Virus genome (UHGV): UHGV-0041851
DNA length: 41,208 bases
Direction: 5' to 3' (one strand)
DNA from: a virus
A program made the position numbers and the translations under genes. Under the pieces are notes generated by a model that saw only the letters and a list, made by a program, of their open reading frames with translations, was not told the DNA's origin and made no database searches. Shown here in pieces: positions 2,975 through 28,782 of this stretch (positions are counted from its first letter, which is position 1; each line of letters starts with the position of its first letter).

Positions 2975-2987
2975 TTGACATGTGACT
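2975..2987 (+). promoter_or_regulatory. Candidate late-promoter element upstream of pacA
   Basis: TTGACATGTGACT, one of four copies of the motif T-T/G-A/G-ACA-A/T-GTGA-C/T-T found in the same orientation upstream of late genes (pacA, mat, prt, lyz). Confidence 0.4.
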
Positions 2988-3033
2988 TTCGTTACCCTCG
3001 CGTCAAAAAGAGTTTTTACGAAAGGAAGCATAA

Positions 3034-4227
3034 GTGACCTGGGACGATCACAAGAAGAATTTTGCTCGCCTGGCGCGAGATGGTGGTTACACCATCGCAC
3101 AGTATGCCGCCGAGTTTAATCTTAACCCTAATACCGCACGTCGTTATCTCCGTGCCTTCAAAGAAGACACCAGGACTGCGGACAGCCGCAAGCCAAATAA
3201 GCCAGTCAGGAAGCCACTAAAAGGCATGATCATTGATCACTCTAATGATCAACATGCAGGTGATCATATTGCGGCTGAAATAGCGGAAAAACAGAGAGTT
3301 AATGCCGTTGTCAGTGCCGCAGTCGAGAATGCGAAGCGCCAAAATAAGCGCATAAATGATCGTTCAGATGATCATGACGTGATCACCCGCGCCCACCGGA
3401 CCTTACGTGATCGTCTGGAACGCGACACCCTGGATGATGATGGTGAACGCTTTGAATTCGAAGCTGGCGATTACCTGATAGATAACGTTGAAGCGCGGAA
3501 GGCCGCGCGCGCTATGTTGCGTCGGTCCGGGGCCGATGTTCTGGAAACCACTCTTCTTGAAAAGTCTCTTTCTCATCTCCTTATGCTGGAGAACGCCAGG
3601 GATACGTGTATTCGCCTGGTGCAGGAAATGCGCGATCAGCAAAAAGACGATGATGGAGGTACTCCGCCTGAATACCGTATCGCGAGCATGCTAAACAGCT
3701 GTTCCGCGCAGATAAGCAGTCTGATCAACACCATTTACAGCATCCGGAATAACTATCGAAAAGAAAGCCGGGAGGCGGAAAAGCACGCTTTGTCTATGGG
3801 GCAAGCTGGCATTGTTAAGCTGGCATACGAACGAAAGCGTGAAAATAACTGGTCAGTGCTGGAAGCAGCTGAATTCATCGAGGCGCATGGTGGGAAAGTT
3901 CCGCCCCTGATGCTGGAGCAAATCAAAGCCGATCTGCGTGCTCCTAAGACCAATACCGATGATGAGGAAAGGCAAACAGCCGTCGGTGGCCCTTCTCTTG
4001 AAGATCTGGACAAAGTTGCGCGAGAACGGGCCGCCAACCGCCGCGCCGATGCCGCATTGTGGATTGAGCAGCGTAGGGAAGAAATCGCCGATATCGTTGA
4101 TACAGGCGGTTATGGAGATGTTGATACTGAAGGTGTATCAAACGACCCATGGCTGGAACAAGACCTGGACGAAGACGAGGAGGAAGACGAAGAAGTTACC
4201 CGCAAGCTATACGGGGATGATGATTAA
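3034..4227 (+). CDS. pacA: PacA, terminase pac-recognition subunit
   Basis: 397-aa ORF (GTG start) [28 protein letters not shown]...; acidic C-terminal tail; contains the GATC-rich pac site. Confidence 0.9.
3225..3412 (+). other. pac packaging site (clustered GATC-containing hexamers)
   Basis: Two clusters of TGATCA/G-type elements inside pacA: four at 3226-3268 and three or four at 3357-3412, matching the known architecture of P1 pac. Confidence 0.8.
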
Positions 4228-5711
4228 TGGCCAGAAGTTGCGTAACGGATCCACGTTGGCGCGAGCTGGTGGCGCTATATCGTTATGACTGGATTGCTGC
4301 CGCTGATGTTTTGTTCGGCAAAACACCTACCTGGCAGCAGGATCTGATTATTGAGTCTGTGCAGGAACAGGGTAGCAAGACATCTGTTTCGTCTGGTCAC
4401 GGTACCGGGAAATCAGACATGACTTCTATCATGATCATGTTGTTCATAATCATGTATCCCGGTGCCCGCGCCATTATCGTTGCGAACAAAATTCAGCAGG
4501 TAATGACCGGTATATTCAAGTACATCAAGATAAACTGGGCTACTGCCACCAGCCGTTTTCCATGGCTTGCTGATTATTTTGTTCTGACAGAAACCGCTTT
4601 CTATGAGGTTACTGGTAAAGGTGTATGGACTGTAGTACCGAAGGGCTTTCGTCTGGGAAGTGAAGAAGCTCTCGCCGGTGAACACGCAGATCATCTTCTG
4701 TATATTATCGATGAAGCCTCCGGTGTCAGTGATAGAGCTTTCGGTATCATCACCGGTGCTCTTACCGGACAGGATAACCGCATCTTATTGCTGTCACAGC
4801 CTACACGCCCAAGCGGCTATTTCTACGATACACACCATAAACTGGCCAAGCGTCCTGGTAACCCTGATGGCGTTTATACGGCGATCACGCTTAACAGTGA
4901 GGAATCACCGTTGGTAACGCCAGCATTTATCAAAATGAAGCTGGCGGAGTACGGCGGGCGTGATAACCCTATGTACATGATTAAGGTACGCGGCCTATTC
5001 CCTAAATCACAGGATGGCTTCCTTCTTGGGCGTGATGAGGTTGAACGTGCAACGCGGCGGAAAGTCAAGATTGCAAAAGGATGGGGCTGGCTTGCATGTG
5101 TGGACGTTGCTGGTGGTACGGGACGGGATAAGTCCGTTATCAATATCATGATGGTGTCCGGCCAGCGAAATAAACGCCGTGTAATCAACTATCGAATGCT
5201 GGAATACACAGACGTTACAGAAACGCAGCTTGCCGCCAAAATTTTCGCAGAATGTAATCCTGAGCGATTCCCCAATATCACCATAGCGATAGACGGCGAT
5301 GGCCTGGGTAAAGCAACGGCGGATCTGATGTACGAGTATTATGGTATTACCGTACAGCGTATACGCTGGGGTAAAAAGATGCATAGCCGTGAAGATAAGA
5401 GCCTGTACTTTGATAAACGTGCTTATGCCAACGTTCAAGCCGCAGAGGCCGTAAAATCTGGTCGTATGAGACTGGATAAGGGTAATGAAACTATTGAGGA
5501 AGCGTCGAAAATCCCTGTAGGGATTAACTCCGCAGGTCAATGGAAGGTGATGAGTAAGGAGGATATGAAGAAAAAACTCAACCTGCACTCACCAGACCAT
5601 TGGGATACATATTGTTTCGCTATGCTGGCTGATTATGTTCCCCAGGATGAAGTGCTTAGCGTCGAAGACGAAGCGCAGGTTGATGAAGCTCTGGCATGGC
5701 TTAATGAATGA
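4227..5711 (+). CDS. pacB: PacB, terminase large subunit
   Basis: 494-aa ORF overlapping the pacA stop (ATGA); ATPase/nuclease-like length and operon position. Confidence 0.9.
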
Positions 5712-5714
5712 ATA

Positions 5715-5731
5715 TTTGCTCTAATAAATTG
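5715..5731 (+). promoter_or_regulatory. C1 operator-like site immediately after pacB
   Basis: TTTGCTCTAATAAATTG matches the C1 operator consensus at 15/17; lies at the head of the icd/ant leader region. Confidence 0.55.
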
Positions 5732-5744
5732 TGTTTTTTAACTA

Positions 5745-5885
5745 CCGATGTTACATTGAGCCTGACCTCTTGCGCCTTGAGGCATTTTCGGTTTATGCTT
5801 ATCAGGCACCTCATTAAAACGGGTGCCGGGATTGGCCTCCCGCTTAAGTCTAAGGCGATACAGACGCCGCTCGCGTCTTTTTTTT
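5745..5885 (+). ncRNA. Candidate c4-like antisense RNA / structured leader
   Basis: About 140 nt between the operator and an intrinsic terminator; contains hairpin GGCACC..GGTGCC and a CCUCC element (5836-5840) within ATTGGCCTCCCGCTTAAGTC that is imperfectly complementary to the icd ribosome-binding region (GTCTAAGGAGGCTGCCAAT, 6033-6051). Confidence 0.3.
5863..5885 (+). terminator. Rho-independent terminator-like hairpin plus T8
   Basis: GACGC-CGCTC-GCGTC stem-loop followed by TTTTTTTT. Confidence 0.55.
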
Positions 5886-6050
5886 GTATCGGCGTACACG
5901 CACACCTCTACAATGGTGGGCTGTATGGGGCTACCTTCGGGTAGGCTGGTTACCTTGGACGCCAGTAAGGCCAACTCCGTACAGTCCACCGCCAGCAAGA
6001 TTGGTCTCTTCTGCGGTGGTTACATACCAACGTCTAAGGAGGCTGCCAAT

Positions 6051-6272
6051 ATGGCTACTATCCCTACCCCAACTCATCCTGAATTTATCTGGCGCTTTTA
6101 CTCCTGCCAAAAACGTCACTATCACTTCGTTATTGCACCGACAGAAGATGAGGCCCGCTCTCAGCTTCCTGACGCCCCATGTATTTTCTCTGCCCGTTTT
6201 TCCACTGATTCACGCAATTCTCTCAGTTACTGGTGCCTCCCTGTTAACGCTTCTGCTCAGGAGGGACTATGA
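6051..6272 (+). CDS. icd: Icd-like small protein (73 aa) translationally coupled to ant
   Basis: ATG at 6051 preceded by TAAGGAGG at good spacing; 73 codons; stop overlaps the ant start (ATGA at 6269-6272); size and arrangement match P1 icd as I recall it. Confidence 0.55.
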   Translation: MATIPTPTHPEFIWRFYSCQKRHYHFVIAPTEDEARSQLPDAPCIFSARFSTDSRNSLSYWCLPVNASAQEGL

Positions 6273-7387
6273 GAACGTCATTAGTCACCCGTGAAGAGAT
6301 GATCGAGGCAATTGAACAGCACACTGCCTGTATCAGTACCAGGGATATACCAGGCGTTATTGCCAATTACTTCATGATCACCAAACAACTTTACCGGAGA
6401 AAGGACAAGAACGCGGTTCACCGTATCCTGTTGTCTGATATCCGCGAATACCTGCTCGAACAGGGTCATCTGAATTACGCAACCGCCGCAGCCGAAGCAC
6501 GCAAGGAGGCACACAGAATGAAAGCAACTAACGTTAAATCAGAAAAAATTCATGCACCTTCAGTTCAAGAATCGGAGCTGGTGGTTGTTCAGAATCAGTC
6601 TGATGAAATTCCCGTTCTGGAATGGCAGGGAGTGCGTGTAGTGACAACCGAGACTCTTGCTAGAGGGTATGGGACAGAAACAATCCGTATTCGCCAAAAT
6701 CATCATGAGAACAAAGTACGCTTTGTTGAAGGGAAGCACTTTTTCAAAGTTGAAGGAGAATCATTGCGCGAGTTGAAGCACAGAGTAGCTTTAAACTACT
6801 CTGTAAAAATTGCTCGCAATGTTCGCTCACTCACCCTCTGGACAGAACGCGGCGCAGCCCGCCACGCTAAAATGCTCGAAACCGATCAGGCATGGGCATT
6901 CTTTGAAAAACTGGAAGACAGCTACTTCCGACAAAAAGAACAGCAACCGATCGCAATCCCCCAGACGCTTCCTGAAGCCCTACGCCTGGCTGCCGAACTG
7001 GCTGAACAAAAGCAACTTCTGGAACAGAAAGCCCACCAGCTAAATCAGCAGCTGGTGGCCGCCGCTCCTAAAGTCGATTTTGCCGACCGGGTATCAGTAG
7101 CTAAAGGGATCCTGATTGGGAATTTTGCAAAGGTTGTTGGACTTAAACAAAACGCGCTGTTTGTCTGGTTACGGGAGAACGGCATCCTGATAGCGTCCGG
7201 TGGACGTAAAAATGTGCCGTTCCAGCAGTACATCAACGCGGGGTATTTCACGGTGAAAGAAGTGGTGCTGGATGATGAAGATGGCTACCAGATACGGTTG
7301 ACGCCTCAATTAACGGGTAAAGGCCAGCAGTGGTTGACGCGTAAACTGCTCGATGCTGGCTTGTTAAAACCGGTGGCGGCTGAATAA
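6269..7387 (+). CDS. ant1: Antirepressor Ant1 (ORF6N-like central domain, KilA-C-like C-terminus); nested Ant2 from in-frame ATG at 6518
   Basis: 372 aa (about 42 kDa); in-frame ATG at codon 84 has a strong AAGGAGG Shine-Dalgarno and gives 289 aa (about 32 kDa), matching the reported 42/32-kDa Ant1/Ant2 pair; domain call is from motif recognition only. Confidence 0.7.
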   Translation: MRTSLVTREEMIEAIEQHTACISTRDIPGVIANYFMITKQLYRRKDKNAVHRILLSDIREYLLEQGHLNYATAAAEARKEAHRMKATNVKSEKIHAPSVQESELVVVQNQSDEIPVLEWQGVRVVTTETLARGYGTETIRIRQNHHENKVRFVEGKHFFKVEGESLRELKHRVALNYSVKIARNVRSLTLWTERGAARHAKMLETDQAWAFFEKLEDSYFRQKEQQPIAIPQTLPEALRLAAELAEQKQLLEQKAHQLNQQLVAAAPKVDFADRVSVAKGILIGNFAKVVGLKQNALFVWLRENGILIASGGRKNVPFQQYINAGYFTVKEVVLDDEDGYQIRLTPQLTGKGQQWLTRKLLDAGLLKPVAAE

Positions 7388-7419
7388 TGGAAGAATGCCC
7401 GGTTGATGCCGGGCATAAT

Positions 7420-8271
7420 TTATTGCGCGCTTTCGGGGTTGTCGTTTACTGGCTGCCCCTTCTTGGTTTTACGGCTGCGCGTAACTGATGCGGCTGACTT
7501 AACCTTTTTCTCTTCGCGAGTGATGGCAATTTGTTTTTTTACATTTTCAATATCTGCCAGGCGATATATTTTTGCTTGCGGCCAGCGGTCGCAGATGATC
7601 GGTTCTATGGAGTCATAAAGGCTAAATTTTGCTTTTTCGAATTCACCGTTGATGATAATTCCATCACGGAGAGTTTCATCGCAGATAAACACGCCACACA
7701 GTGGCACATGGTAACTAACTGATTTACCATCATTGTAGTTAGGGCTACTGGAAATGTAGTGGACGCGCAGCATTGTTTCGCTAAAGCCGTGTACGCGCAT
7801 ACGGAATTTTTCATCCTCCGGGTACTGCTTCATTAGCTCTTTTGTTGCTTCTAGGTTCTCTATGTATTTCGCACTGTGCTCATTGATCCCCGCGCTTTTT
7901 TGGATGCGAATGTCCTTATCAATCAGATGAATAATGCGGCCAGCGGTCATGTTGACGCTGTTCACAGCTTCTGTCTGATAAGTTGTAACCTTACGCACAC
8001 CGCGAAGGATGTTAGGCACTGGATATAAAATAGTCTTTGGGATATTGAGGTCTGGGTACTGTTCCAGTTCCCGCGCCATTAAAGTCCATTTATCAATTTC
8101 AGCCTGAATGCTGTCAGTTTCTTTGAACGGTAGAACGACAACCGGGCGTACAGGACGACCGTCGCTGGCTGTATCAACGTGTTGGGCGCGTGCAACAGCT
8201 TTTTTTAGAAAGAGATCCCTGAAGCTGACGAACTCCTGGTACAGTTGTTCGCCGTAGACATAATTTATCAT
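7420..8271 (-). CDS. c1: C1 repressor of lysis
   Basis: 283-aa ORF of the length reported for P1 C1; flanked upstream by coi and operator-like sites; convergent with ant. Confidence 0.9.
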   Translation of the reverse strand: MINYVYGEQLYQEFVSFRDLFLKKAVARAQHVDTASDGRPVRPVVVLPFKETDSIQAEIDKWTLMARELEQYPDLNIPKTILYPVPNILRGVRKVTTYQTEAVNSVNMTAGRIIHLIDKDIRIQKSAGINEHSAKYIENLEATKELMKQYPEDEKFRMRVHGFSETMLRVHYISSSPNYNDGKSVSYHVPLCGVFICDETLRDGIIINGEFEKAKFSLYDSIEPIICDRWPQAKIYRLADIENVKKQIAITREEKKVKSAASVTRSRKTKKGQPVNDNPESAQ

Positions 8272-8365
8272 TGATCCTCCTCCAGAATTGACATGGTCAA
8301 TAACGCCCGGCTGAGAAAACCGGTCATTACTGACCTATATTATAGAGGGATCAAACAAAAATAAT

Positions 8366-8382
8366 AGATTTATTAGTGCATT
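8366..8382 (-). promoter_or_regulatory. C1 operator-like site between coi and c1
   Basis: Minus-strand AATGCACTAATAAATCT, an ATTGCACTAATAAATCT-type operator variant, overlapping the coi stop. Confidence 0.5.
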
Positions 8383-8591
8383 TATTGTGAGTCTAACTGG
8401 TTAGTTGCCATGAGATATTCGATTGTGTCAGTGAGGTCATCCAAGTCGTCTTGGGTGATGCGGTACTCCTGATTGGATATCTTTGAGTAGTGTTCAGCAA
8501 TGGCGCGGGCAGCGTCGGTTTCGGCAGGGTCTACAGATAAAGCGTTAGAGCAATGTCTAACGTCGTCGATGGTTGGTTGAATGAAAGCCAT
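8382..8591 (-). CDS. coi: Coi, C1 inactivator
   Basis: 69-aa ORF immediately upstream of c1 on the same strand, matching P1 coi size and position. Confidence 0.8.
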   Translation of the reverse strand: MAFIQPTIDDVRHCSNALSVDPAETDAARAIAEHYSKISNQEYRITQDDLDDLTDTIEYLMATNQLDSQ

Positions 8592-8829
8592 AATTATGCC
8601 TCACTGTATTGACAACACAGAGCCTGAAGCTCTGACCTACTGTTTCACCCATGATCCATGCTGGGGTAATCTAACAACATTGCGCTGTGTGTAAGATGAG
8701 CAATGCATAGCTGTAATGCCGTTGTATAAGGTTTCCCTGTTTGCTCATTTCCTTCTGAGCCGCTCTACAACGCTGAAGACACATTAAATAGTGAATCCAA
8801 AGTCGTATTACGTAACGGCGGCAAAACTA

Positions 8830-8846
8830 TAATTTATTAGAGCAAT
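8830..8846 (-). promoter_or_regulatory. C1 operator (Op99-type)
   Basis: Minus strand reads ATTGCTCTAATAAATTA, 16/17 to consensus. Confidence 0.6.
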
Positions 8847-8912
8847 TGTCAAACAACTATGAAAAACAATCCAGTTTTTAGCTGGTGGAGTGGGATTTTT
8901 CTCTCAAAATTT

Positions 8913-8929
8913 ATTGCTCTAATAATTCT
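8913..8929 (+). promoter_or_regulatory. C1 operator (Op99-type)
   Basis: ATTGCTCTAATAATTCT, 14/17 to consensus. Confidence 0.55.
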
Positions 8930-8972
8930 TGATTTTTGTGCGCAGCTGGACGTAAACTCCTCTTCGGACCTG

Positions 8973-10448: not shown

Positions 10449-10465
10449 CCATTAACGCGTAAATG

Positions 10466-10482: not shown

Positions 10483-10498
10483 ATATTTATGGTGACAT

Positions 10499-11051: not shown

Positions 11052-11057
11052 GACCAT

Positions 11058-11618: not shown

Positions 11619-11653
11619 TAAATATATTATTTTTAATGATAAATGATTGACAA

Positions 11654-11666
11654 CTGACAAGTGACT
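11654..11666 (+). promoter_or_regulatory. Candidate late-promoter element upstream of mat
   Basis: CTGACAAGTGACT, second copy of the recurrent late-gene motif. Confidence 0.4.
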
Positions 11667-11807
11667 TCAGTCAGAATCATCACACGCCCGGTACGGATGG
11701 ATCCCTTTTCAAATATTCCATGGACGGCACAGTCTGAGTACCGGGCGCTACCTTCAGTTGTATTGCTAAGCCGCCGCTGGTGGCTTTTCTTTTTTGTAGG
11801 GGGCGCT

Positions 11808-12523: not shown

Positions 12524-15436
12524 TTATGGTAATGCGCTCTTGATTAACTGATAAATATCATCATTAGCAAACTGCGTTCTGAATTCAACTTTAACAGACT
12601 GACTTATTTGATTGAAAAGCGCTTGGGCATGTTCAATTTTCCGTTTTTCTTCAAGCCGTAAACTATCCTTACTATCTACGTTTTTTGTTTCAATGATAAA
12701 ATTAAGATAATCACCTTCCGCTGTTTTTACAACATAAGCAAAATCGGGTGAGTAAGTGTATCCACCAGCTACCGGGATCTTAATAGAATTCTTCGGTATC
12801 TTTGAAAAAACAACAACAGACTGGATCTCTCTATCTGTTATATTACGCCTTTCAAGCTCTGAATCATAAAAAACTTCTTCAAAAAGATAAGTATCTAATG
12901 GTGCTTTTGCATTATCCTGCAATACACCAAGATCACTTGATAATACCTCGCCTAGAGGATTACCATCAGCATTTGTGAACTTTGTAGGATGAATTGAACC
13001 CGAAATCAAATTATATCCGAGGCTGAATTTATTAAACGAATTGTTCAACAAATACTTACTAAAACCAGATTTAATTTTTCTGATTGTTTGAATATTAAGG
13101 TATTCAGTGATATTAATAGTGTCTTTTATATCACAAAAAACTTTATGTAAAGTACCGTGTTTAACAAAAATAGTCTGTGATAAGTTATCGAGAAACTCTC
13201 GATAGCTCATTGTGTTCAGCTTAGCAAAGTCATCGTCATCACTGACAATGCTTTTCGACATTGCCATATCATTGTGGATGTAAATTTTATCAATGCGAGT
13301 ATGAACGCCTGATTTGGTAAATCGTTCTGTTTCTTCGAGCATGAATGACTTGAAAATGGATAAAAATTCACTTTCACTGTTTATTTTGTACTCAATCACC
13401 GCTTTTTGATTGATCAAATCCCATAGTTCTTTCAGCTCACTGAACTTACCAACACGCATTTTAGTGCGTCTTTTTCCATCAGTAGCTTTTTTGATTTTAC
13501 CAGGTTTCACTCCTATAGGGAATGCTGCTGGATATTTGGATTTTAAGCGGCTATAGGCATCTGAATCTTTGAAATTATCATTGTCATCAATGATTTCATC
13601 ATTGAAAAGTTCATTCATTAGTGCTCTGGATGAAAGCTCAGGATACTGAGCCATGATTTGTTCCTTAAGCTCTTGAGTAAACTTACTTGGAACCCTTTCT
13701 TTGAAAGAACTCTCGTTGACCTCTTTAACAAGTGAGTCAACAAAATCCTTTTCTGTAAAATCAACATAATATTTAAGGGTAAAATTGCGGTCTTTCACTC
13801 GACACATGTATTCATTCACAGGAAGACGCAAACCGCGCCCTACCTCTTGAAGCTTAGATGTGGTACTACCGCTCGAACGGAGCTTACAGATCTGAAAAAC
13901 ATTAGGATTATCCCACCCCTCACGCAACGTCCATTTTGAGAAAATAAACCGACGGGGATTATCTAAAGACAGCAAAAGCTCTTTGTCATGAAGGATTTCG
14001 TTGATTTCCTGCTCGATTTTATCATCCTTATCACTGTTATCTTTTGAGAAATAACCACCATGAACGGAAGATATATTTGTGACTGTTTTTTCAAGATAGT
14101 TTTTATAAAACGCATCTTGCTCTGTTTTTAACAGTTCATTAGCTTCTGCCAGAACGTATTCTTCGAATTTGGTCTTCAGGCTTCCGGAAATATCATTACC
14201 GTCACGATAGCCTTCAATATCGTCAATAAAGAAAAGAGTAAGAGGCTTTATGCGTGGCCTTTGTGTCAGAAGTTCTTTTTCTAACTTAAAGTGTTCTTTG
14301 ACAGCCTTACGCATCATGTTATCAGCGAGTGTCTGATCGTAAGAATAGGGATTTATTGAGCTACCAATCTTCAACTCAATACCATTACTCAACACTGCTG
14401 TGCTCTTGTTTAAAGCATCAAGAGTTAAATCATGGATCGCACTATGCGTCTTAGACAGTGATTCACCTTTAGCTAACTTAAACGATTTTTTGTTGTTGTT
14501 TTCATTCAGTTCAAATGTAGCTTCCTTTCCGTCAGATTTGACGAATTTGAGGTTTGCGTTACCATCGCCGACTATATCCTCAATATATGCATCAATACCT
14601 TTAACGAGATCATCGTTAAATGCGTCCACGGCTGTAAGACGATAAACCAGGTTCTTATAGCCTTCGCTAAAGGTTGCGCCATAGCGGATAATATATTGTG
14701 CGTTAAATTTCTCTATGTTTTCCCATGTTTTTTTACCAGTAGGAAATCTATGTGGTTCGTCAATGATGATAAATGGTTTTACAGCTCTGAGCGCGTCAAC
14801 TGGAGTATTAAACTGATTATCAAGCAAGCCAGTATCGTAAGTATCCGTTAAAGACTTAGAGTTGATCATTCCTGAGTTAATAACAAGAACGTGTATATAT
14901 TTTTTATTGAAGTTACTTGCTTCAACAAAATCATGTATAGCCTGAGGCATATACGATTTTGTATTTTTGCCAGCGTTTTTCTGACTTTCAACAACGTAAG
15001 TTCTCAGCTCACGCTTGTAATCATCCCGGAAGTGTTCTTTTAAAGCATCACTTTTTAAAAAGTTAACGGTTCCGGCCTTGATAGATAGAGTCGGAACAAT
15101 GATGATAAACTTGTTAATACCAAATGATTTATTCAGGTCAAAAATAGTTTTGATATAGGTGTACGTCTTGCCTGTACCTGTCTCCATAGAAACATCAATG
15201 ATGTTGCTTTTAGCATTGTGATTATCTTTTGAGTGCGCAATACCATTGAACGCCTGAACATTTTTTATATTGTTGTAGTATTGTTGTTCAGACAGCTTCA
15301 GTTCAGGATTAGCTAAAAGGCGAACAGCAACATTATCCGTCAGGTGAGGTGTTGCGGAAACAAAAACATTCATCACCGCATCGACTCCTGCTTTCTGATG
15401 CGGCAAGTTCTTTTCGAGAGTGAACCCTTTTGACAT
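12524..15436 (-). CDS. res: Type III restriction endonuclease Res subunit
   Basis: 970 aa; helicase motifs including Walker A TGTGKT and DEPH box (IIIDEPHRF); immediately downstream of mod. Confidence 0.9.
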   Translation of the reverse strand: MSKGFTLEKNLPHQKAGVDAVMNVFVSATPHLTDNVAVRLLANPELKLSEQQYYNNIKNVQAFNGIAHSKDNHNAKSNIIDVSMETGTGKTYTYIKTIFDLNKSFGINKFIIIVPTLSIKAGTVNFLKSDALKEHFRDDYKRELRTYVVESQKNAGKNTKSYMPQAIHDFVEASNFNKKYIHVLVINSGMINSKSLTDTYDTGLLDNQFNTPVDALRAVKPFIIIDEPHRFPTGKKTWENIEKFNAQYIIRYGATFSEGYKNLVYRLTAVDAFNDDLVKGIDAYIEDIVGDGNANLKFVKSDGKEATFELNENNNKKSFKLAKGESLSKTHSAIHDLTLDALNKSTAVLSNGIELKIGSSINPYSYDQTLADNMMRKAVKEHFKLEKELLTQRPRIKPLTLFFIDDIEGYRDGNDISGSLKTKFEEYVLAEANELLKTEQDAFYKNYLEKTVTNISSVHGGYFSKDNSDKDDKIEQEINEILHDKELLLSLDNPRRFIFSKWTLREGWDNPNVFQICKLRSSGSTTSKLQEVGRGLRLPVNEYMCRVKDRNFTLKYYVDFTEKDFVDSLVKEVNESSFKERVPSKFTQELKEQIMAQYPELSSRALMNELFNDEIIDDNDNFKDSDAYSRLKSKYPAAFPIGVKPGKIKKATDGKRRTKMRVGKFSELKELWDLINQKAVIEYKINSESEFLSIFKSFMLEETERFTKSGVHTRIDKIYIHNDMAMSKSIVSDDDDFAKLNTMSYREFLDNLSQTIFVKHGTLHKVFCDIKDTINITEYLNIQTIRKIKSGFSKYLLNNSFNKFSLGYNLISGSIHPTKFTNADGNPLGEVLSSDLGVLQDNAKAPLDTYLFEEVFYDSELERRNITDREIQSVVVFSKIPKNSIKIPVAGGYTYSPDFAYVVKTAEGDYLNFIIETKNVDSKDSLRLEEKRKIEHAQALFNQISQSVKVEFRTQFANDDIYQLIKSALP

Positions 15437-15438: not shown

Positions 15439-17394
15439 TTAGTTCCTCACCACCAAATCTAACTCAATAGATTTTTTATTAGCATAACTTTTTAGTGCTT
15501 CATTGAGTTCCATTTGCTTTGCGCTTTCAAAGTTGCTGCCATAAAACACGACTTTGTTTGGAGCAAAGTCTTTGTCTGAATCCACCTTTTGAAGTAACGC
15601 TTTCAATGCTTCGCTAGTAAAATTAGGTGCAATCAAATACAGACGACCATCGCACAAATGTGCTTTGTAGCCACCAAGATCAACATCTTCAATAGGTGTT
15701 GTTAGCAAACTGCCATCATACAGGCACCATGTAGTTAATAGAGTGTCATATTGTTCAGGCGTCAAGACAACATCATCAAAGAATGTATGATTAGACAGTG
15801 TAAGTTCTGATTCGTCTTTAGCGCGAAAATCTGGCATTAGTTGATATACCTTAAACCCCTGATCCCTATTTTTTTTAGACGCCCTAATTAAACGCTCCTT
15901 TGTTAAGTCAAATATTGTATTATAGCCATGCTTCATGGCATCAGATTTATCTTTTGTAGGTTCATCTAGTTGAACTGTAATAAACTGATACGACGTTTTA
16001 TTTTTGTTATTCAAATTAAAAACTGTATGCGCTGTAGTTCCTGACCCAGCAAAAAAATCCAAAACAATACCCTCTCCATCACATGCAAAAGATATTAAAT
16101 CTTCTACTAATTTTATAGTTTTAGCATTTGTGAATGGTTGAGTCATTTCTGGGAACAGCTCTTTAAGTTCGTTCGTTGCAACACGCCCATCAAGATGGAT
16201 AACGGAGCTTAATTTCTGTTTGTAATCCTTAGCATAAACTTTTAGTTCTATAATTTTGTTTTCATCATCACCGAAGATGATCTTTTCTTCAGACAGAAGC
16301 CTATCCATTGTATCTAATGGAAAACGATATCCCATAAGAGGTTGTTTGCATGGCTTCTTAGTTTTTGGATGTATAATATCATATCTGTAACCCTCTTTTC
16401 CGGGGTTGTGGACGCTCTGACTACCAGTATAGATGCCGTCTTTGTCTATATATTTGTATCGGTCAAGAGGCCATAATTCAGATCTGTGTTCACGAAACCA
16501 CTGGGTATATTTTTCCTGAAGTTCATTGCCAGTGTATTTTGATGCAAATTCTTCACCTATGTTGACAAGTAAGTTTTTTACATCGGAGATATTAGATTTC
16601 CACTCACTTATAAGCTGCTCTTTGTTTTTTGTGTAAACAATAATATATTCATGCTCTACAGCGATATTTGAAGGGTTGTTATCAGTTGCATTTTTCCATA
16701 CTAGATCCCCAACATGGTTTTGCTCACCAAAGATCTCGTCGCAAACTAGTTTTAATTGACTGAACTCATTATGGTCAATAGAAATAAAAATAGTCCCGTC
16801 TTCTCTCATTAATTCACGAGCAATATAAAGGCGTGGGTAAATGAATGTCAGCCATGCACTATGACTGCTTGACCCCTTGGTGGTAAATTCTAATATGCGT
16901 TTAGCCTCATCGAGGTCGATGCCTGCTAGTTCAGAAAGCTGCTCAGGTGTAAATTTGCGATCATCATTATAAACGAACCCATCCTTACCTGTATTGTATG
17001 GTGGGTCAATGTAAATCATCTTCACCTTTTCAGCGTAAGCATTAACCATATGCTTCAATACTTCGAGATTATCCCCTTTGATTAACAGGTGTTGACTGTT
17101 CTTGTTCTCTTCTTGTTGGTTATGAGTTTTATCTTCTGCCAACAACGTTTTCGGTGGTAGATTGGCCAACAAACGGGCATAAGATTTACCCAGCCAGTTC
17201 AAGCTGTATGATTCTTTAGAGAGTTCAACTTCCGATGCCCTAATAATCTCAAGCAATTTTTCTTGAATGAAGGCTCCGTTTTTATCAAAACACTGAGGGA
17301 AATTAGCTTTCAACACAGCCAGTTGCTTGCTGTTAGCCGTTTCTACTTCGGAAAAAATCGTTTCTTTTTTCATATCCATTTTAAACCAGATCAT
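15439..17394 (-). CDS. mod: Type III N6-adenine DNA methyltransferase Mod subunit
   Basis: 651-aa track ORF; motif IV DPPYN (YIDPPYNTG) and motif I FFAGSGTT; true start probably an internal Met (MDMKKETIF or MKKETIF), giving 646 or 644 aa. Confidence 0.9.
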   Translation of the reverse strand: MIWFKMDMKKETIFSEVETANSKQLAVLKANFPQCFDKNGAFIQEKLLEIIRASEVELSKESYSLNWLGKSYARLLANLPPKTLLAEDKTHNQQEENKNSQHLLIKGDNLEVLKHMVNAYAEKVKMIYIDPPYNTGKDGFVYNDDRKFTPEQLSELAGIDLDEAKRILEFTTKGSSSHSAWLTFIYPRLYIARELMREDGTIFISIDHNEFSQLKLVCDEIFGEQNHVGDLVWKNATDNNPSNIAVEHEYIIVYTKNKEQLISEWKSNISDVKNLLVNIGEEFASKYTGNELQEKYTQWFREHRSELWPLDRYKYIDKDGIYTGSQSVHNPGKEGYRYDIIHPKTKKPCKQPLMGYRFPLDTMDRLLSEEKIIFGDDENKIIELKVYAKDYKQKLSSVIHLDGRVATNELKELFPEMTQPFTNAKTIKLVEDLISFACDGEGIVLDFFAGSGTTAHTVFNLNNKNKTSYQFITVQLDEPTKDKSDAMKHGYNTIFDLTKERLIRASKKNRDQGFKVYQLMPDFRAKDESELTLSNHTFFDDVVLTPEQYDTLLTTWCLYDGSLLTTPIEDVDLGGYKAHLCDGRLYLIAPNFTSEALKALLQKVDSDKDFAPNKVVFYGSNFESAKQMELNEALKSYANKKSIELDLVVRN

Positions 17395-21200: not shown

Positions 21201-24200
21201 ACGATAGGTGATCCGGCGATAGTACAGGTCCATGTCAGTACATACGCGGTCCATATCCCTGATTATTGAGAAGATCGGACGGGCTTTCTCGTGCTCAATC
21301 ACGCCGTCTTCATTGACCGAGGTCGTTACGCCATTGTTGGCTTTGGCCGCCGCTTCCGCCTGCTGACGCAATTCTTCATACGCCGCCAGTTGTTCTTCAG
21401 TAAGTGGTGCATCCTGCTGGTGTTCGTCCAGCTCCGGGATCTCCACGGTATCCTTAACGTCTTCCGCCGTTTTAAGCGTTACCCAGCGATGGAATATACC
21501 GCGCAGCGCATCAAGGTTTTCAAAGCCCACCAGCGCCATTTTTTCTTCAACTTCACCGCTAATTTTCTGTACCGTTTCCAGCCTGGTCTTGCCGAAGAAT
21601 TTAACGAAGTCATCAGGACCGTAGATCCCCATGTTCTGCCAGTATTCCTTCGGCAGAACATGAGAAAGCATGTTGTATGCATCGATCGGGGTGTTAACGA
21701 CTGGCGTTGCAGTCAGGAGAACCGGCCCGCGCCCGCCATTCTTTTTCATCAGGTACGCGTTTTTAATTGCCATATCTCGCGCCGATTGCGCCACCGCGCT
21801 GGTGGGCAGATAGGCCAGTTGTGACGCTTCGCGACCATTTTTATAGCTATTGCGGTAGTTGTGACCTTCGTCGGCGATCACACTATCGAAGCCCATATCC
21901 TCAAAGTACGGATACTTCTCTGCTTTTTCGGTGCCGGTATCTGAATACTCCGACAATACCCGGCGACGCGCGGCCTCTTTGCGGTGGGAGTCGGAGTCCA
22001 TTGCGCTGGCTACGCGCCCGGCTGCAACGAAGTCATAAAGCATATCCTGTGCATGCTCATCTACGGTGTCATCACGTAGCGGAATGCGGGCGTATTGTTC
22101 TTTGGTAAACACGACTGCACGGTAATTTGAGTGCGGGATCGCGTTCATCCGCGCCGTGATAGTGGCTTCATCTGCCAGCTTAAGAGCATCGCGCATAACT
22201 GGAGTGCCATCAGTACCAAGAACAGGTTTACCGTTCTCATTGAGCACCGGCACCTGGCGAATCTGATCGCCATCCATCAGCACATCAAGACCGACGAACA
22301 GGTAGTTACTGAATGCCTCTTCACTCAGGAACTCTTTTGCTTCGTAATACCAGTTTTCCAGCACTGATTTAGGCACTACATACGCAGTACGGGTGGAGCG
22401 ACCGTTCTCATAGTTGAACGCCTCAAGCGCCAGCGCGGTCGTCGTTTTACCCAGCCCGGTGCCGAAGCCCAGGATGCCGCGCCCATCTTCGGACAGTCGT
22501 CTCACCTCGCTATTCTGGTAATCAAATGGCTGGCGCTTACCGCTTAATCCCTTCAACCCAAGCGGATCGCCAGAGTGTTCATACGGGATATTGCTATTGA
22601 ACACATCGTTGTATTTGGCAACCAGTTCATCGTAGCGATCGTGCGTCTTGATCCACTTATTGAACTGGTCCTCAAGCAGTGCCATCTGCTCGCGGTAGCC
22701 GTTCGCCGTCGCGCTATCTTTGCCACCGATACGCGCACCATTGAGATACTTTTCCAGCTGTGCCGGGAACCCGGTCGCGTTTTCACCTGATTTACGGTCC
22801 CACTCGTAGCGGATCTCGCCTGTTTCTTTATCCTTGCGCTGGACGACACCGTATCGGTGCCCGACGAACAGACCATCACCACCGTGATAGGTGTCAGAAA
22901 CCATTTCGTCGCCTTCCAGCTGCACTGACTGCACATAGCGCAGATCCGGATAGCCGTTTTCCTGCAAAAATTCCAGAATGACGGAGCGGTCGAACCAACG
23001 GCTATTGAGCTTAAAGCGGATATTCTCTGCTGGCGTCTTGATGCGCTTCTCTTCGATCGCTGCCAGCTGATTAAGGACGTTGTTCTTTACTGGACCGTCG
23101 GGGAGTGTGGCAAGAAATTCCTGTTTTGGAGCCACTATCTCGTTAATGTCGCCGCTGGTGGCGCGGGCGAACGGAACAATCCCGCCATACGGTGAAACCG
23201 CAATACCAGGGGTGCTGGCCAATAAATTAAGCAACTCTTCATCACTGGCTGGCAGTTCGCCGGTAAACGCAAGGCGGAAATCATCGAGCTGGATTGGATC
23301 GCGGGTAAGATCGCTATAGAGATAACGCAGGGTGTCCTGATAGCTGGTGGAGTCATAACTGGCGCTGGAATCATGCGTAACCAGCTTTCCTGTCAGCTCG
23401 TCAGAAATAGTGCCATCCAGCTTAATCGCACCACGGAAAGCAAACCAGGCGCGCGCACCGCTCCCCGACAATTTCGCTATCGGACCGCGACCGGGGTTAC
23501 CAAAACGGTCAATCTCTGCCTGCAAACGGGATACCAGAGAAAGGCGCTGCTGTTCGATTTGTTCAGCACTATGCCCGGCGGCCTTCATGTCCTGATATTC
23601 AATTAACATCCGGCCAATCATCGCCCCGCGATACAAGCGTTCACGGTATTTTTCAGGCTGGCTGTTAATCCAGTCCACCAGCTGCACCATATCGTCGCTG
23701 ATTGATGTGGTGTACTTATCGCGGACATTTGCCATCTGGGTAAATGTCATGCCGAGACGGCCTTCTGTTGTAGTCAGGTTACGCTGAAGAGCCTCCCAGC
23801 TATCCGCGCCATAACTGGCAGCATCGATCTTAAGTTCCTTCCCGGCATCAGCTTCAATCCAGCGACCACCAGCATATTTTTGCCATACGCCATTAATCAG
23901 GCGCATTTCCCCTTCACCAACAACGTCTGCGGTCGGTGACGGTTCAGCCATATCGAGCAAAGACCAGTCGATACGGCTTTCGAAACGATGAATCAGCTTC
24001 GCTTTAAGAGCCTGGTTATCAATCTGACCGTCGGCACGAACCTCAATACGCCCCTGGAAGCCCTTTTCCTGGGTGCCATGAACAAACCGGCGACCGTCCT
24101 TTTCAAACCACTTGCCAGAAATAAACGTTGGCCAAAGCACATTTGCCGATTCAAGAGTGCTTTCATCCACCAGGGGGATTTTCTCAGCCATCTCTGCCGG

Positions 24201-25025
24201 ATGTTTGCGCATCAGCACCACATCAACGACTGTACTGGTCCCGTTTGCGTCAAAAGTACCGGTAGGCAAGCGGTGAGCGCCAAGAAATTCAGCTTTACGG
24301 GATAAGCGCAGGCGTAACCGCTTCATGTTTGAACCTGAAACAATGGACGGCGGCACAATCACACACATGAATCCGCCAGGTTTTATCTTGTCCAGCATGC
24401 GGAGCATGAAGTAAGACCCCATGTCCGTTTCTTCTGCGTAAGGCTTATCGATGTTGCGTGTGTTATCACGACCGCCGAACGGAACGTTACCCACAACATG
24501 GTCGAATGAATCGTTAGGCGTGTTTATAGCCAGCTGTTCGAACGGGGAAATCTGTACGCTGTCTTCCGGGTGTAACAACTGGTTTATACGACCGGAAACA
24601 CTGCTGATCTCAGTCGCGGTCATCACCGTACCAACCGGTTTTGTCTCATTAAAAACGCCGGTTCCCGCCGATGGTTCCAGAGTGTTACCTACGTCCGCGC
24701 CGTAGAGCTTCATGATCTCCCAGACACCTTCAGCGATAGGCTTTGGTGTGTAATATTCGGAGACGGACCCGCCAATGCCGCCTTCACCAGTGTACCCGGC
24801 CAGGATCTGGCGCTGTTCATCTGTCAGTGTCGCGCCGTCCACCAGCGAATTAAGCAAATCTATCGCCTTCTGATTCGCCTCCCGGCGCAGTCGGTCATAG
24901 CTTTTGCCTTCCACCTTTTCCACGCCGTATTTAATCGGCGCTCGGTGAGATGTTATTGCCCTAATGTATTTCAATATTTCGCTGACACTTGAACAGCGAA
25001 ACACCCCCATAGATAGCTTGTTCAT
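18258..25025 (-). CDS. darB: DarB, defence-against-restriction protein with methyltransferase and helicase domains
   Basis: 2255-aa ORF, the length reported for P1 DarB; methyltransferase-like N-terminal region and helicase motifs (GTGLGKTT, DEGH). Confidence 0.9.
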   Translation of the reverse strand: MNKLSMGVFRCSSVSEILKYIRAITSHRAPIKYGVEKVEGKSYDRLRREANQKAIDLLNSLVDGATLTDEQRQILAGYTGEGGIGGSVSEYYTPKPIAEGVWEIMKLYGADVGNTLEPSAGTGVFNETKPVGTVMTATEISSVSGRINQLLHPEDSVQISPFEQLAINTPNDSFDHVVGNVPFGGRDNTRNIDKPYAEETDMGSYFMLRMLDKIKPGGFMCVIVPPSIVSGSNMKRLRLRLSRKAEFLGAHRLPTGTFDANGTSTVVDVVLMRKHPAEMAEKIPLVDESTLESANVLWPTFISGKWFEKDGRRFVHGTQEKGFQGRIEVRADGQIDNQALKAKLIHRFESRIDWSLLDMAEPSPTADVVGEGEMRLINGVWQKYAGGRWIEADAGKELKIDAASYGADSWEALQRNLTTTEGRLGMTFTQMANVRDKYTTSISDDMVQLVDWINSQPEKYRERLYRGAMIGRMLIEYQDMKAAGHSAEQIEQQRLSLVSRLQAEIDRFGNPGRGPIAKLSGSGARAWFAFRGAIKLDGTISDELTGKLVTHDSSASYDSTSYQDTLRYLYSDLTRDPIQLDDFRLAFTGELPASDEELLNLLASTPGIAVSPYGGIVPFARATSGDINEIVAPKQEFLATLPDGPVKNNVLNQLAAIEEKRIKTPAENIRFKLNSRWFDRSVILEFLQENGYPDLRYVQSVQLEGDEMVSDTYHGGDGLFVGHRYGVVQRKDKETGEIRYEWDRKSGENATGFPAQLEKYLNGARIGGKDSATANGYREQMALLEDQFNKWIKTHDRYDELVAKYNDVFNSNIPYEHSGDPLGLKGLSGKRQPFDYQNSEVRRLSEDGRGILGFGTGLGKTTTALALEAFNYENGRSTRTAYVVPKSVLENWYYEAKEFLSEEAFSNYLFVGLDVLMDGDQIRQVPVLNENGKPVLGTDGTPVMRDALKLADEATITARMNAIPHSNYRAVVFTKEQYARIPLRDDTVDEHAQDMLYDFVAAGRVASAMDSDSHRKEAARRRVLSEYSDTGTEKAEKYPYFEDMGFDSVIADEGHNYRNSYKNGREASQLAYLPTSAVAQSARDMAIKNAYLMKKNGGRGPVLLTATPVVNTPIDAYNMLSHVLPKEYWQNMGIYGPDDFVKFFGKTRLETVQKISGEVEEKMALVGFENLDALRGIFHRWVTLKTAEDVKDTVEIPELDEHQQDAPLTEEQLAAYEELRQQAEAAAKANNGVTTSVNEDGVIEHEKARPIFSIIRDMDRVCTDMDLYYRRITYRFLPEYADAVQQLADSLPKQATSEDDDSDDSITQQSQYSLIDKGEFIQLQVPEAFEQEVNKRLARFGIDEQTVTHPVTPKYAKLIATLKEFFPEGKQIIFTDEKTQHQKLKRIICNALNLEPSKVGILNAQTVAEAGKTGKKLKAVKPPKELPDEPTDAQIAKYNEQMALYDAYIAQQNEMSLGGLEKIAADFQEGRTPIIICNKKAEVGINLHRGTTDIHHLTLPWTPASIAQRNGRGARVGSNRASVRVHYYCGKGSFDEYRLKTLKRKAGWISDILRSDKSEMENADANDMIEMQMYTAKDDGERLAMMQVQMDKAKAAKRARQKEQATIDLQNYIKAQHAAGEDVEVLTAELERSKAELEKTTAEVAKFKQAVMAKAADNADWKARWGSVHHTDRMLLAQYRASLKSAIQRKANISQAISRYEKLLNRTQKAATDIKRLRPLVEDAINKGILDVDPDLVNHASEFLVIGDRSWRVGQYYDCAGDIVRIKSLDFDSQRADVEIIFTFKGTKSGNWDVKTLDKQVDVTPDEDAVMQKISGGVSIAGINDIISCDDFYRFQQRGMIKITDSYGVQTTESGYSIDFVGTYTDPLKHAVYPDRRDGALKSSIAKWVLGMMSEGNNRQIRSAETFLVELFGSNYGDVIASYGDTLSPEAIQEKIADAIARMPEKTSQGATRNGDSELEVTNAIFGTNEFRGSDYEITTAQFGTIGIYSNKAEIKQAMDAASARIAAEREANLNHAVAALTQSWVTAIREAATTGKITPAIADVVNDGSKFMDAYQMDAVKLPSAYGQLSYRMTYNLVSMFSDLAILGLVDLNEVTPELLSMRKNHVEILQRINTVLAGRTDEEKQADADRINLALGNITEEEIAARNEKQEELSSIQGDATSIAQSLGLNYRVSTADLKMMYAPKFAAGEVFGLQEASGMKGVLFRAKDAIKAKFGARWLPAKAKNSDFPGNWWIIETKHNVADVLAVIQQYA

Positions 25026-25033
25026 TGGTAATC

Positions 25034-25046
25034 ATTAACAAGTGAC
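25034..25046 (+). promoter_or_regulatory. Candidate late-promoter element upstream of prt
   Basis: TTAACAAGTGACT within the near-palindrome TTAACAAGTGACTAGTGTTAA, in the darB/prt divergent intergenic region. Confidence 0.4.
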
Positions 25047-25091
25047 TAGTGTTAAATTCCGTTAGAACACGATGCGAATTATTCTAATTAA

Positions 25092-27822
<2,731 letters not shown>

Positions 27823-27834
27823 CCACCAAAAATA

Positions 27835-27862
27835 ACCCCGGCGGATGCCGGGGTTCTCGTTA
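27835..27862 (+). terminator. Terminator-like hairpin after pro
   Basis: AACCCCGGC-GGAT-GCCGGGGTT stem-loop followed by a T-rich stretch. Confidence 0.4.
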
Positions 27863-27866
27863 ACTA

Positions 27867-28121
27867 TTATCGCCTTCGCCTGCGTGCCATATATTTGCGC
27901 ACCGCGCGGCGTGGACAATCTGAAGCGGTTTCTTTCTGCTGCATCAATCTTGCAGCCATGCTCAAAAATGTCAGGCACAGCCGAAGCCCAGCATACAATA
28001 GCGGTTCCAGTGGCCACGTCTCATTGAGCACATATATCGCCATGAAAATCGAGTCGAAAACTATCGCCGCCAGCGATAACTTCATTGTCGAAAGTCGGCG
28101 GAGCTGCCGGAGCTTATTCAT
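27867..28121 (-). CDS. Small membrane protein downstream of lyz (possible lysis accessory protein)
   Basis: 84-aa ORF whose start overlaps the lyz stop; hydrophobic segment plus strongly basic C-terminus (RRRRR). Confidence 0.3.
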   Translation of the reverse strand: MNKLRQLRRLSTMKLSLAAIVFDSIFMAIYVLNETWPLEPLLYAGLRLCLTFLSMAARLMQQKETASDCPRRAVRKYMARRRRR

Positions 28122-28671
28122 TGACCAGTCCCGTCAGGCAAAGCTGGCGTTCTTTTTCACGGCGAATCTTTAAACCTCGCAGGGGCACGCCGTTACTGTT
28201 CACGAAATCAGGGAGATGGTTACACATATTCACCCATTCCCCTTTCTGCGCCCACTTGTGGATGGACGTTTCTACTCGCATGCCTCGCGCTTTGCTGTAG
28301 TAGGTCCGTAAGCTATTGCATCCCATATTGAATGCCGCGCTTGTCATTGCACTGAAGGCATTATCGGGCATGTCTTTGCCCCGGAAGTGCTGATTAATAC
28401 AGCGTTCAACGATCAGGATATTCTTTTCCCAATCAGCGGCGATTTGCTGGTCTGTTTTTCGCACACCCGGCGTTACCCCGTGTGTATTACCGATCCCGTC
28501 AGTCCATACCCCTGCCGGGCACATGTATGGATCACGTCGGCAACCTTCAGCGTTTCCGATAAGCTCAAGCCCCGCCTGGTTGGTTCGCACATTGCCATTA
28601 CCCATCACGATGGTAATCATCACCGCGATAGCGCAAATTGCACCGCCTCCTGCGGCTGTTTTTCCCTTCAT
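28114..28671 (-). CDS. lyz: Lyz, SAR-endolysin (T4 lysozyme-like)
   Basis: 185-aa product from the internal Met (MKGKTAAGGGAICAIAVMITIVMG...): N-terminal signal-anchor-release segment followed by a lysozyme-like catalytic region; the track ORF extends 33 codons upstream. Confidence 0.88.
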   Translation of the reverse strand: MKGKTAAGGGAICAIAVMITIVMGNGNVRTNQAGLELIGNAEGCRRDPYMCPAGVWTDGIGNTHGVTPGVRKTDQQIAADWEKNILIVERCINQHFRGKDMPDNAFSAMTSAAFNMGCNSLRTYYSKARGMRVETSIHKWAQKGEWVNMCNHLPDFVNSNGVPLRGLKIRREKERQLCLTGLVNE

Positions 28672-28769
28672 AAAGACCTCATAAGCGAATTTTTTACGCT
28701 CCAGGACAAACACCCATTCACAGCCAATACCGACTGACTCGATCCCTTTAGAAGGCACAGGATAATGCA

Positions 28770-28782
28770 AATCACTTGTTAG
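28770..28782 (-). promoter_or_regulatory. Candidate late-promoter element upstream of lyz
   Basis: Minus strand reads CTAACAAGTGATT, fourth copy of the recurrent motif, oriented with lyz. Confidence 0.4.

Follow-up and report, generated by a model that had tools for sequence, protein, structure and literature searches.

The motif that recurs upstream of late genes in the viral genome UHGV-0041851 most probably (we put the probability at roughly 95%, on sequence comparison) serves as activator box in five late promoters that depend on Lpa and belong to a P1-type phage-plasmid. The window, by which we mean the whole analysed stretch of 41,208 nucleotides, derives from a P1-like phage-plasmid with 94-97% identity to P1 and P1-family phages. 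Compared with annotated sequences, the motif is the already described P1 Lpa box; the identification is correct but ordinary and already known. Promoter architecture, identity to P1 promoters, presence of lpa and of its operator Olpa, intergenic placement, orientation and conservation were computed here, while Lpa binding, SspA dependence and transcription start sites are taken from the literature.

The late promoters of P1 were reportedly described by Lehnherr, Arber and colleagues and are said to be described as well in the P1 genome paper of Lobocka et al. from 2004. Late promoters number 11 in P1, and Lpa binds them at a 9-bp inverted repeat that all of them conserve (PMC10695390). As an activator, Lpa binds DNA in a sequence-specific manner and works together with E. 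coli SspA (PMC1891329), and lyz is among the late genes that depend on Lpa (PMC8198154). Transcription from promoters of this type starts about 7 nt past the -10 hexamer and needs Lpa and host SspA (PMC10695390, PMC1891329, PMC8198154 and the P1 annotation).

Concerning the motif itself, a sequence-only reading of the window had described a 13-bp consensus upstream of pacA, mat, prt and lyz and had proposed an Lpa-dependent late-promoter element near -22. The four copies are real: the pattern YTRACAWGTGAYT has exactly four matches in the window, at 2975-2987 (+), 11654-11666 (+), 25035-25047 (+) and 28770-28782 (-), and only the prt copy had been placed one position off, at 25034. Every copy points to its adjacent late gene, as had been claimed. 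In the P1 reference (GenBank AF234172 / NC_005856), the late promoters carry a '-22 region' and a -10 signal; the sites homologous to the four copies are annotated there as LPpac, LPmat, LPpro and LPlyz, each marked with a '-22 region', and each copy is identical to its annotated counterpart over 24 of 24 nt. The proposed type of element and its position are thereby borne out. The boundaries had been drawn with a shift: the 13-mer opens with three poorly conserved bases, continues with the conserved AC and stops one base short of the end of the canonical 9-mer AAGTGACTT, of which it takes in eight bases but not the final T. A fifth site of the same kind, LPdar upstream of lydA (38739-38762, minus strand), was absent from that reading because it departs from the 13-mer consensus at two positions (TTGAGAAGTTACT).

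In the late-promoter element, which has no -35, the 9-bp inverted repeat AAGTGACTT centred near -22 is followed by 4 bp and a sigma-70 -10 hexamer. The quasi-palindromic box (AAGTNACTT-like) is present at all five sites and identical to the P1 '-22 regions', and each box is followed by a 4-nt spacer and a -10 hexamer (Table 1). LPdar is flanked by AG, not AC. The -10 hexamers of LPmat and LPpac match TATAAT weakly, as expected for activator-dependent promoters, and they give no positive support. LPmat and the sigma-70 promoter Pmat (-35 TTGACA at 11647-11652, 19-nt spacer) use one common -10, as in P1, and Pmat of the window is identical to the annotated P1 Pmat. No rightward -35/-10 pair was found upstream of prt at LPpro.

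Table 1. Late promoters, activator gene and operator in the window. Scores are from the late-promoter matrix.
Feature	Genes or role	Position	Strand	Upstream AC	Box	Spacer	-10 hexamer	First downstream start	Score or comparison
Olpa	C1 repressor operator	2409..2425	+		ATTGCTCTAATGCATTG				3 mismatches to C1 operator consensus
lpa	late promoter activator gene, 150 aa	2496..2948	+						100% identical to P1 Lpa over 150 aa
LPpac	late promoter of pacA-pacB	2978..2998	+	2978-2979	ATGTGACTT 2980-2988	TCGT	TACCCT 2993-2998	pacA GTG 3034	26.3 bits; identical to P1 LPpac
LPmat	late promoter of mat	11657..11677	+	11657-11658	AAGTGACTT 11659-11667	CAGT	CAGAAT 11672-11677	mat ATG 11697	25.6 bits; identical to P1 LPmat
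LPpro	late promoter of prt-pro	25038..25058	+	25038-25039	AAGTGACTA 25040-25048	GTGT	TAAATT 25053-25058	prt TTG 25101	29.1 bits, top of window; identical to P1 LPpro
LPlyz	late promoter of lyz-lydD-lydE	28759..28779	-	28779-28778	AAGTGATTT 28777-28769	GCAT	TATCCT 28764-28759	lyz start ~28671	24.9 bits; identical to P1 LPlyz
LPdar	late promoter of lydA-lydB-hdf-darA-ddrA-ddrB-hxr	38739..38757	-		AAGTTACTT 38757-38749	TGCA	TACCAT 38744-38739	lydA GTG 38710	22.6 bits; identical to P1 LPdar

Ten late promoters from the P1 annotation were used for a matrix of 24 columns. A scan of the window with this matrix yields five matches of 22.6-29.1 bits, all upstream of late genes, and the next best match in the window reaches 12.4 bits. 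In 200 shuffled controls the mean best score was 12.7 bits and scores above 13 were rare. These enrichment tests are not independent of the homology to P1. For YTRACAWGTGAYT, 0.03 matches are expected from dinucleotide-preserving shuffles, a test that is circular since the degenerate pattern was written from the same four sites. All five matrix sites are located in the non-coding 10% of the window, facing pacA, mat, prt, lyz and lydA; equal frequency inside coding regions, which had been named as an outcome that would speak against a promoter element, is not observed, as none of the five falls into the coding 90%. A full-text literature search with the box sequence returned unrelated primer matches only.

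Nine orthologous promoters were compared in P1, Cronobacter phage JK004, whose Lpa is 67% identical, and a Salmonella arizonae plasmid. Among these three lineages, agreement amounts to 81% of the box cells, 80% of the -10 cells and 18 of 18 AC cells, as against 24-37% in the flanks. Box and -10 of LPpac are kept in JK004 and Salmonella plasmids, where orthologous sites of LPdar are present as well, and LPpro is kept in three other lineages. LPmat forms a conserved island in the alignment, and so does LPlyz, which adjoins the conserved C1 operator Ossb (28805-28821). The first three bases of the 13-mer, in which only 37% of the cells agree across the three lineages, appear unconstrained. Conservation peaks in the AC upstream of the box and in AC(TT), its right half-site; variation within the box is greatest in the left half, AAGT. 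The AC upstream of the box is kept across the three lineages, and the element therefore looks like an asymmetric 11-mer. That Lpa in fact acts through an asymmetric site, AC-AAGTGACTT with a length of 11 bp or more and a single reading direction, and not through the symmetric 9-bp inverted repeat of the literature, we rate at slightly below even odds. If true, it would explain how unidirectional promoters arise from a palindromic box. The conserved AC and the asymmetric nature of the box may be of use for the engineering of P1 late expression and for work on DNA recognition by Lpa and SspA.

The activator Lpa is encoded in the window, upstream of LPpac. The gene product matches the Pfam family BPP1_LPA (PF25716, E 3e-57). 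Olpa lies just upstream of the lpa early promoter; P1 has an annotated Olpa at the corresponding place, with a single nucleotide different. A PDB sequence search with Lpa found no relative, and a single-sequence AlphaFold prediction reached a pLDDT of 50; its predicted helices (residues 20-30, 36-46 and 54-66), followed by short strands, are compatible with a winged helix, a pattern too uncertain to use. A hairpin after lpa was considered as a terminator and rejected; the scan did not accept its T-run, and its folding z-score is only -1.1. There is a small possibility that a stretch in the 5' end of darB (24955-24971) represents an unannotated C1 operator; in that case prt-pro would be under dual early and late control, like mat. 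The version of this stretch in JK004 is the better match.

Together with the literature, a late-gene cascade can be proposed. In the prophage, the repressor C1 would keep lpa off via Olpa. Upon induction Lpa would be made and would bind the box near -22, and Lpa and the SspA associated with host RNA polymerase would then allow the sigma-70 holoenzyme to initiate transcription some 21-22 bp past the centre of the box. The genes turned on in this way would be pacAB (packaging), mat (maturation), prt and pro (portal and head processing), lyz and lydA/B (lysis), and those of the Dar head proteins.

The sequence-only reading had further suggested possible bidirectional use of the prt copy, in which the same box would also drive darB leftward. 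There is a precedent, as the P1 record assigns one box (78495-78503) to two divergent late promoters, LP26 and LPpmgL. Moreover, the near-palindrome claimed around the prt box exists: it spans 21 bp, with arms TTAACA and TGTTAA separated by 9 nt, plus ACTAGT. Reverse-strand use was scored, and rejected, for each of the five boxes (-11.8 to 6.0 bits), and prt is the sole site scoring above 0, with AC on both sides. Late expression would also make sense for DarB, since its annotation, like that of the internal head protein DarA, is defence against restriction. However, the 6.0 bits in reverse compare with 29.8 bits forward and with 9.6 bits for the weak LPpmgL. The reverse -10 hexamer, ATGATT, is without the A at position 2 and is not conserved, reading AGGATT in P1 and AGGATC in JK004. 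From its position (25035-25030), transcription would begin within the darB ATG (25025-25023), at about 25023, and no leader or ribosome site would be left. The P1 record has a separate sigma-70 promoter, PdarB, further right. A usable -10 on both strands together with room for a leader, by which a bidirectional pair is recognised, is thus not found at prt/darB, and we regard a bidirectional late promoter at this place as improbable.

Still less credible is a reading of the motif as a sigma-70 -35 or as the operator of another regulator such as C1. In its favour, the first six bases resemble a -35 in the pacA copy (TTGACA) and in the mat copy (CTGACA), and C1 operators are common in the window. 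Yet the TTGACA at 2975-2980 is only 12 nt away from the -10, a promoter scan found no sigma-70 -35/-10 pair at LPpac, and the first bases of the 13-mer vary between lineages (e.g. TTGAC, TTAAC, TTCAC). Nor is the motif related to the C1 operator consensus ATTGCTCTAATAAATTT, which has seven matches in the window, all at other places. It might finally be argued that the recurrence is due to chance, or is a functionless relic of short duplications, as the consensus is a post hoc summary of four sites and isolated perfect boxes do arise by chance. Two of these occur in the window, one inside res (14910-14918) and one in the correct orientation 45 nt upstream of the porin ATG (30712-30720), a number consistent with the chance expectation of 0.58; both were rejected as promoters, having no acceptable -10 at 4 or 9 nt. 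Against this stand five sites of full architecture with at least 22.6 bits, all intergenic and correctly oriented, in which box and -10 form conserved islands inside intergenic DNA that has diverged among three lineages. Conservation and placement effectively refute chance or relic as an explanation.

Recognition of the late promoters as Lpa-dependent allows the promoters of a P1-like phage-plasmid to be annotated correctly; phage-plasmids of this family carry resistance genes in Enterobacteriaceae. It also indicates that a genuine class of regulatory motifs can be recovered by reading raw sequence, with little consequence for new biology. As compared to P1, the downstream genes, the gene order and the architecture of 9-bp box, 4 bp and -10 are all alike, and no difference exists within LPpac, LPmat, LPpro, LPlyz and LPdar, the fifth site being included in the identity of 24 of 24 nt. 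Nevertheless, the window is a relative of P1 and not P1 itself: it has an extra antirepressor module, a different mod segment, a porin gene where P1 has isaA-IS1-isaB, and a different invertase and tail-fibre end.

In phage D6 and D6-like plasmids, an activator box is likewise found at a fixed short distance upstream of a -10, with no -35 and with similar late operons. The Lpa of D6 is only 31% identical and D6 has one P1-type site, while the D6 box AAATCACA with 7 nt and a -10 precedes 12 late operons as against 1.5 expected. In the form AAATCACAA the D6 box matches the P1 box at seven of nine positions; it is, however, non-palindromic and differs at the T8 invariant in P1, its distance to the -10 is 2 bp longer, and its flank shows no conserved AC. 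We count the divergence of box and Lpa in D6 as co-variation that would speak for recognition of the box by Lpa, and the different box may help the engineering of P1 late expression or studies of recognition by Lpa and SspA.

Middle promoters of phage T4 combine a MotA box near -30 with a sigma-70 -10 and work with AsiA. In both phages the -35 has given way to a box for a phage-encoded activator, and promoters of a later temporal class still rely on the -10 of host sigma-70. T4 employs MotA and the sigma-remodelling AsiA, whereas P1 employs Lpa and host SspA, and sequence and position of the box differ; no homology is known between the proteins of the two systems. The Francisella system of MglA-SspA with PigR differs in serving a bacterial virulence regulon instead of a phage late class and in its DNA sites and activator, but there, too, a polymerase-bound protein of the SspA family contacts a DNA-bound activator, and P1 Lpa and SspA have been cited as the precedent for this mode of activation (PMC1891329).

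The recurrent 13-bp motif upstream of pacA, mat, prt and lyz is the textbook late-promoter class of phage P1, found in a close P1 relative, and is as such already known. In the annotated P1 record (AF234172) there are eleven late promoters (LPmat, LPpro, LPlyz, LPdar, LPs, LPsit, LP23, LP26, LPpmgL, LPhot and LPpac), and each of them combines a 9-bp '-22 region', here called the box, with a -10 signal. At the four homologous places the record carries LPpac, LPmat, LPpro and LPlyz, and their box, spacer and -10 are identical in the window. The observation holds, and its interpretation by the sequence-only reading as late promoters dependent on the activator Lpa is right. Added here are a missed fifth promoter, corrected motif boundaries, a conserved AC directly 5' of the box and some side observations.

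The degenerate 13-mer YTRACAWGTGAYT matches the window 4 times versus 0.03 times in dinucleotide-preserving shuffles, an enrichment that is circular because the pattern was derived from these same four sites; independent support was therefore sought. The copies have the sequences and surroundings described for them, except that the third starts at 25035 and not at 25034. A matrix scan, as had been proposed, was run with 24 columns from ten annotated P1 promoters; LPhot was left out because its spacer is 9 nt; it lies outside the window. Five matches of 22.6-29.1 bits stand clear of the next best (12.4 bits), and the mean best score of 200 shuffles was 12.7 bits. The fifth match is LPdar, which was not among the original four. 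Each promoter faces its adjacent late gene (pacA, mat, prt, lyz, lydA). On a gene map built from ORFs and homology to P1, 90% of the window is coding, yet 0 of the 5 promoter 24-mers touch coding sequence, so that copies are not equally frequent inside coding regions. Across the whole of P1, the nine standard annotated sites rank first. An unannotated P1 site inside gene 7 (ACAAC AAGTGACTG gtga TAACCT; outside the window) reaches 20.5 bits, a value within the range of genuine late promoters, and may serve the tail operon as an internal late promoter. Isolated perfect boxes in the window, both lacking a usable -10, agree in number with chance expectation.

The box annotated in P1, AAGTGACTT, is palindromic (AAGT-N-ACTT), and 4 nt separate it from the -10. 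The 13-mer therefore consists of the five bases 5' of the box and box bases 1-8. For comparison we used Cronobacter phage JK004, two Salmonella phage-plasmids and phage D6 (MF356679). Lpa identity is 67% for JK004, 79-85% between the Salmonella plasmids and JK004, and 31% between D6 and P1. With the P1 matrix, orthologues of the late promoters are recovered from JK004 and both Salmonella plasmids, and when the five window promoters are aligned with these relatives, box and -10 are conserved islands amid diverged intergenic DNA. Nine orthologous promoters were compared cell by cell in three lineages, and a cell was counted when all three agree: the AC does so at 18/18, the box at 81% and the -10 at 80%, against 44% in the spacer, 37% at 13-mer positions 1-3 and 24-33% in more distant flanks. 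A6 and C7 of the box are invariant, and its left half AAGT is least conserved. With the upstream columns removed from the scan, every site at >=15.5 bits still carries AC (JK004, 6/6; S. arizonae plasmid, 5/5). Since AC is fully conserved and present in sites found without those columns, the element appears better described as the asymmetric 11-mer AC-AAGTGACTT. The 'yT' opening the earlier consensus is incidental; at the pacA copy these bases are the T-run of a hairpin 3' of lpa.

This hairpin (GCCCG-TTC-CGGGC, then CTTTT) lies between the stop codon of lpa, which it directly follows, and LPpac, which it abuts; it explains the 'TT' of the pacA motif. The relatives have a longer stem of different sequence and a T-run; in the window the hairpin is not called by the terminator scan and has a weak folding z-score. 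JK004 and the S. arizonae and S. Newport plasmids each have a further site resembling a late promoter (CTCAC AAGTGATCT gttt TACGAT), which points at ssb and is about 90 bp away from LPlyz; window and P1 have no counterpart of it.

The prt copy had been suggested to serve as a late promoter leftward into darB as well. The near-palindrome there is real, and P1 offers a precedent in LP26 and LPpmgL, two divergent late promoters sharing one box. Against this, the prt box scores 6.0 bits in reverse versus 29.8 forward, and the reverse -10 would be ATGATT where P1 has AGGATT and JK004 AGGATC, so that this hexamer is not conserved. Moreover, a leftward transcript is predicted to start at about 25023, within the start codon of darB. 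We regard bidirectional use as very improbable and read the prt site as the rightward promoter LPpro. Two further readings were set aside. In the pacA copy 12 nt separate TTGACA from the -10, a spacing unsuited to a -35, and no sigma-70 pair was called at this site in a promoter scan. The operator consensus of the prophage repressor C1 is unrelated to the motif, and C1 operators are situated elsewhere. A C1-operator-like 17-mer, ATTGCCCTAATGTATTT, with 3 mismatches to the consensus, lies inside the darB 5' end, 69-85 nt upstream of the LPpro box, and is absent from the P1 annotation. JK004 and the Salmonella Newport plasmid have ATTGCTCTAATAAATCT (1 mismatch) at the same position, in spite of divergence in the surrounding part of the darB gene. 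The 17-mer may be a genuine operator that adds early control of prt-pro to the late promoter.

The gene immediately upstream of LPpac encodes Lpa with 100% identity to the P1 protein, and the product matches Pfam PF25716 ('Late promoter-activating protein'). In P1 the 11 late promoters share a conserved 9-bp inverted repeat to which Lpa binds (PMC10695390). Lpa is a sequence-specific DNA-binding activator and acts together with SspA, a host protein that associates with RNA polymerase but does not bind the DNA of late promoters (PMC1891329). Late genes, lyz among them, are Lpa-dependent (PMC8198154). Together with lpa and the C1 operator Olpa in the window, this literature points to a cascade: upon loss of C1 repression Lpa would be made, would bind the box near -22 and, with SspA, would let sigma-70 holoenzyme start at promoters without a -35. 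Lpa binding, SspA dependence and start sites are taken here from literature and P1 annotation. Lpa has no relative by sequence in the PDB, and its single-sequence AlphaFold model (pLDDT 50) is too poor for use.

The first 20 kb of the window are 94-98% identical to P1-family phages and phage-plasmids (P1, P7, SJ46, RCS47 and others). Local BLAST against the P1 record gave the layout below, with three segments replaced or inserted. In place of the P1 isaA-IS1-isaB segment stand a porin gene (OmpC-type; Pfam Porin_1, E 4e-148) and the remnant of an IS1 transposase; most of this stretch is present in only six plasmids of the collection searched. Between pacB and c1, where P1 has no such module, lie a small ORF, an Ash-family protein and an ORF6N/KilAC antirepressor, in parts 70-81% identical to P1 icd-ant, with their own C1 operator. 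Part of mod does not align to P1 and may confer a different type III specificity. The invertase lies on the strand opposite to P1 cin, is only 69% identical at the DNA level; two short ORFs coding for phage tail-collar domains come after it.

Features and their positions (window coordinates unless another genome is named)
Feature	Position	Strand	Remark
13-mer, LPpac	2975-2987	+	
13-mer, LPmat	11654-11666	+	
13-mer, LPpro	25035-25047	+	
13-mer, LPlyz	28770-28782	-	
LPdar 24-mer	38739-38762	-	upstream of lydA
lpa	2496-2948		
Olpa	2409-2425		1 base different from P1 Olpa
Hairpin after lpa	2959-2978	+	
C1-operator-like 17-mer	24955-24971	+	
darB start codon	25025-25023		
Isolated box	14910		inside res
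Isolated box, AAGTGACTT	30720-30712		45 nt 5' of porin ATG
P1 gene 7 site	P1 76780-76803	-	
Second ssb-facing site	JK004 83280-83303	+	
Second ssb-facing site	S. arizonae plasmid 48050-48073	+	
Second ssb-facing site	S. Newport plasmid 80830-80853	-	
D6-type pattern	39088-39108	-	P1 31571-31591; lydC-cin intergenic
lydC ATG	39048		40 nt from the pattern
P1-type site	D6 71091	+	
D6 box examples	D6 25221, 27727, 31511, 38115, 45491, 54124, 67393, 71013, 72100	-	
Aligned to P1	56-5709		P1 87.5-93.2 kb, humD to pacB
pacB-c1 module	5708-7387	+	
C1 operator of module	5715-5731		
Aligned to P1	7421-15831		c1, lox, cre, ref, mat, res, part of mod
Unaligned part of mod	15831-16766		
Aligned to P1	16766-29329		remainder of mod through lxc, ulx, darB, prt, pro, lyz to ssb
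Porin gene	29563-30675	-	
IS1 remnant	30962-31285	-	
Aligned to P1	31672-39352		hxr through dar operon and lydA to lydC
Invertase	39484-40065		
Tail-collar ORFs	within 39484-41208		after invertase

A pattern of the D6 type, AAATCACA aagtgca TACCGT, faces lydC, for which P1 has no annotated promoter. Its spacer and -10 resemble those of LPdar (TGCA TACCAT), as though its box had lost the right half; about 0.7 such patterns per window are expected by chance. In phage D6 itself, the P1 matrix finds only one P1-type site, while AAATCACA followed by 7 nt and a -10 precedes 12 late operons versus 1.5 expected in shuffles. The D6 box, A[AT][AT]T[CA]ACA + 7 nt + -10, is distinct from that of P1. With a diverged Lpa and a different box in D6, activator and box co-vary between the two phages, which supports the box as the recognition site of the activator.
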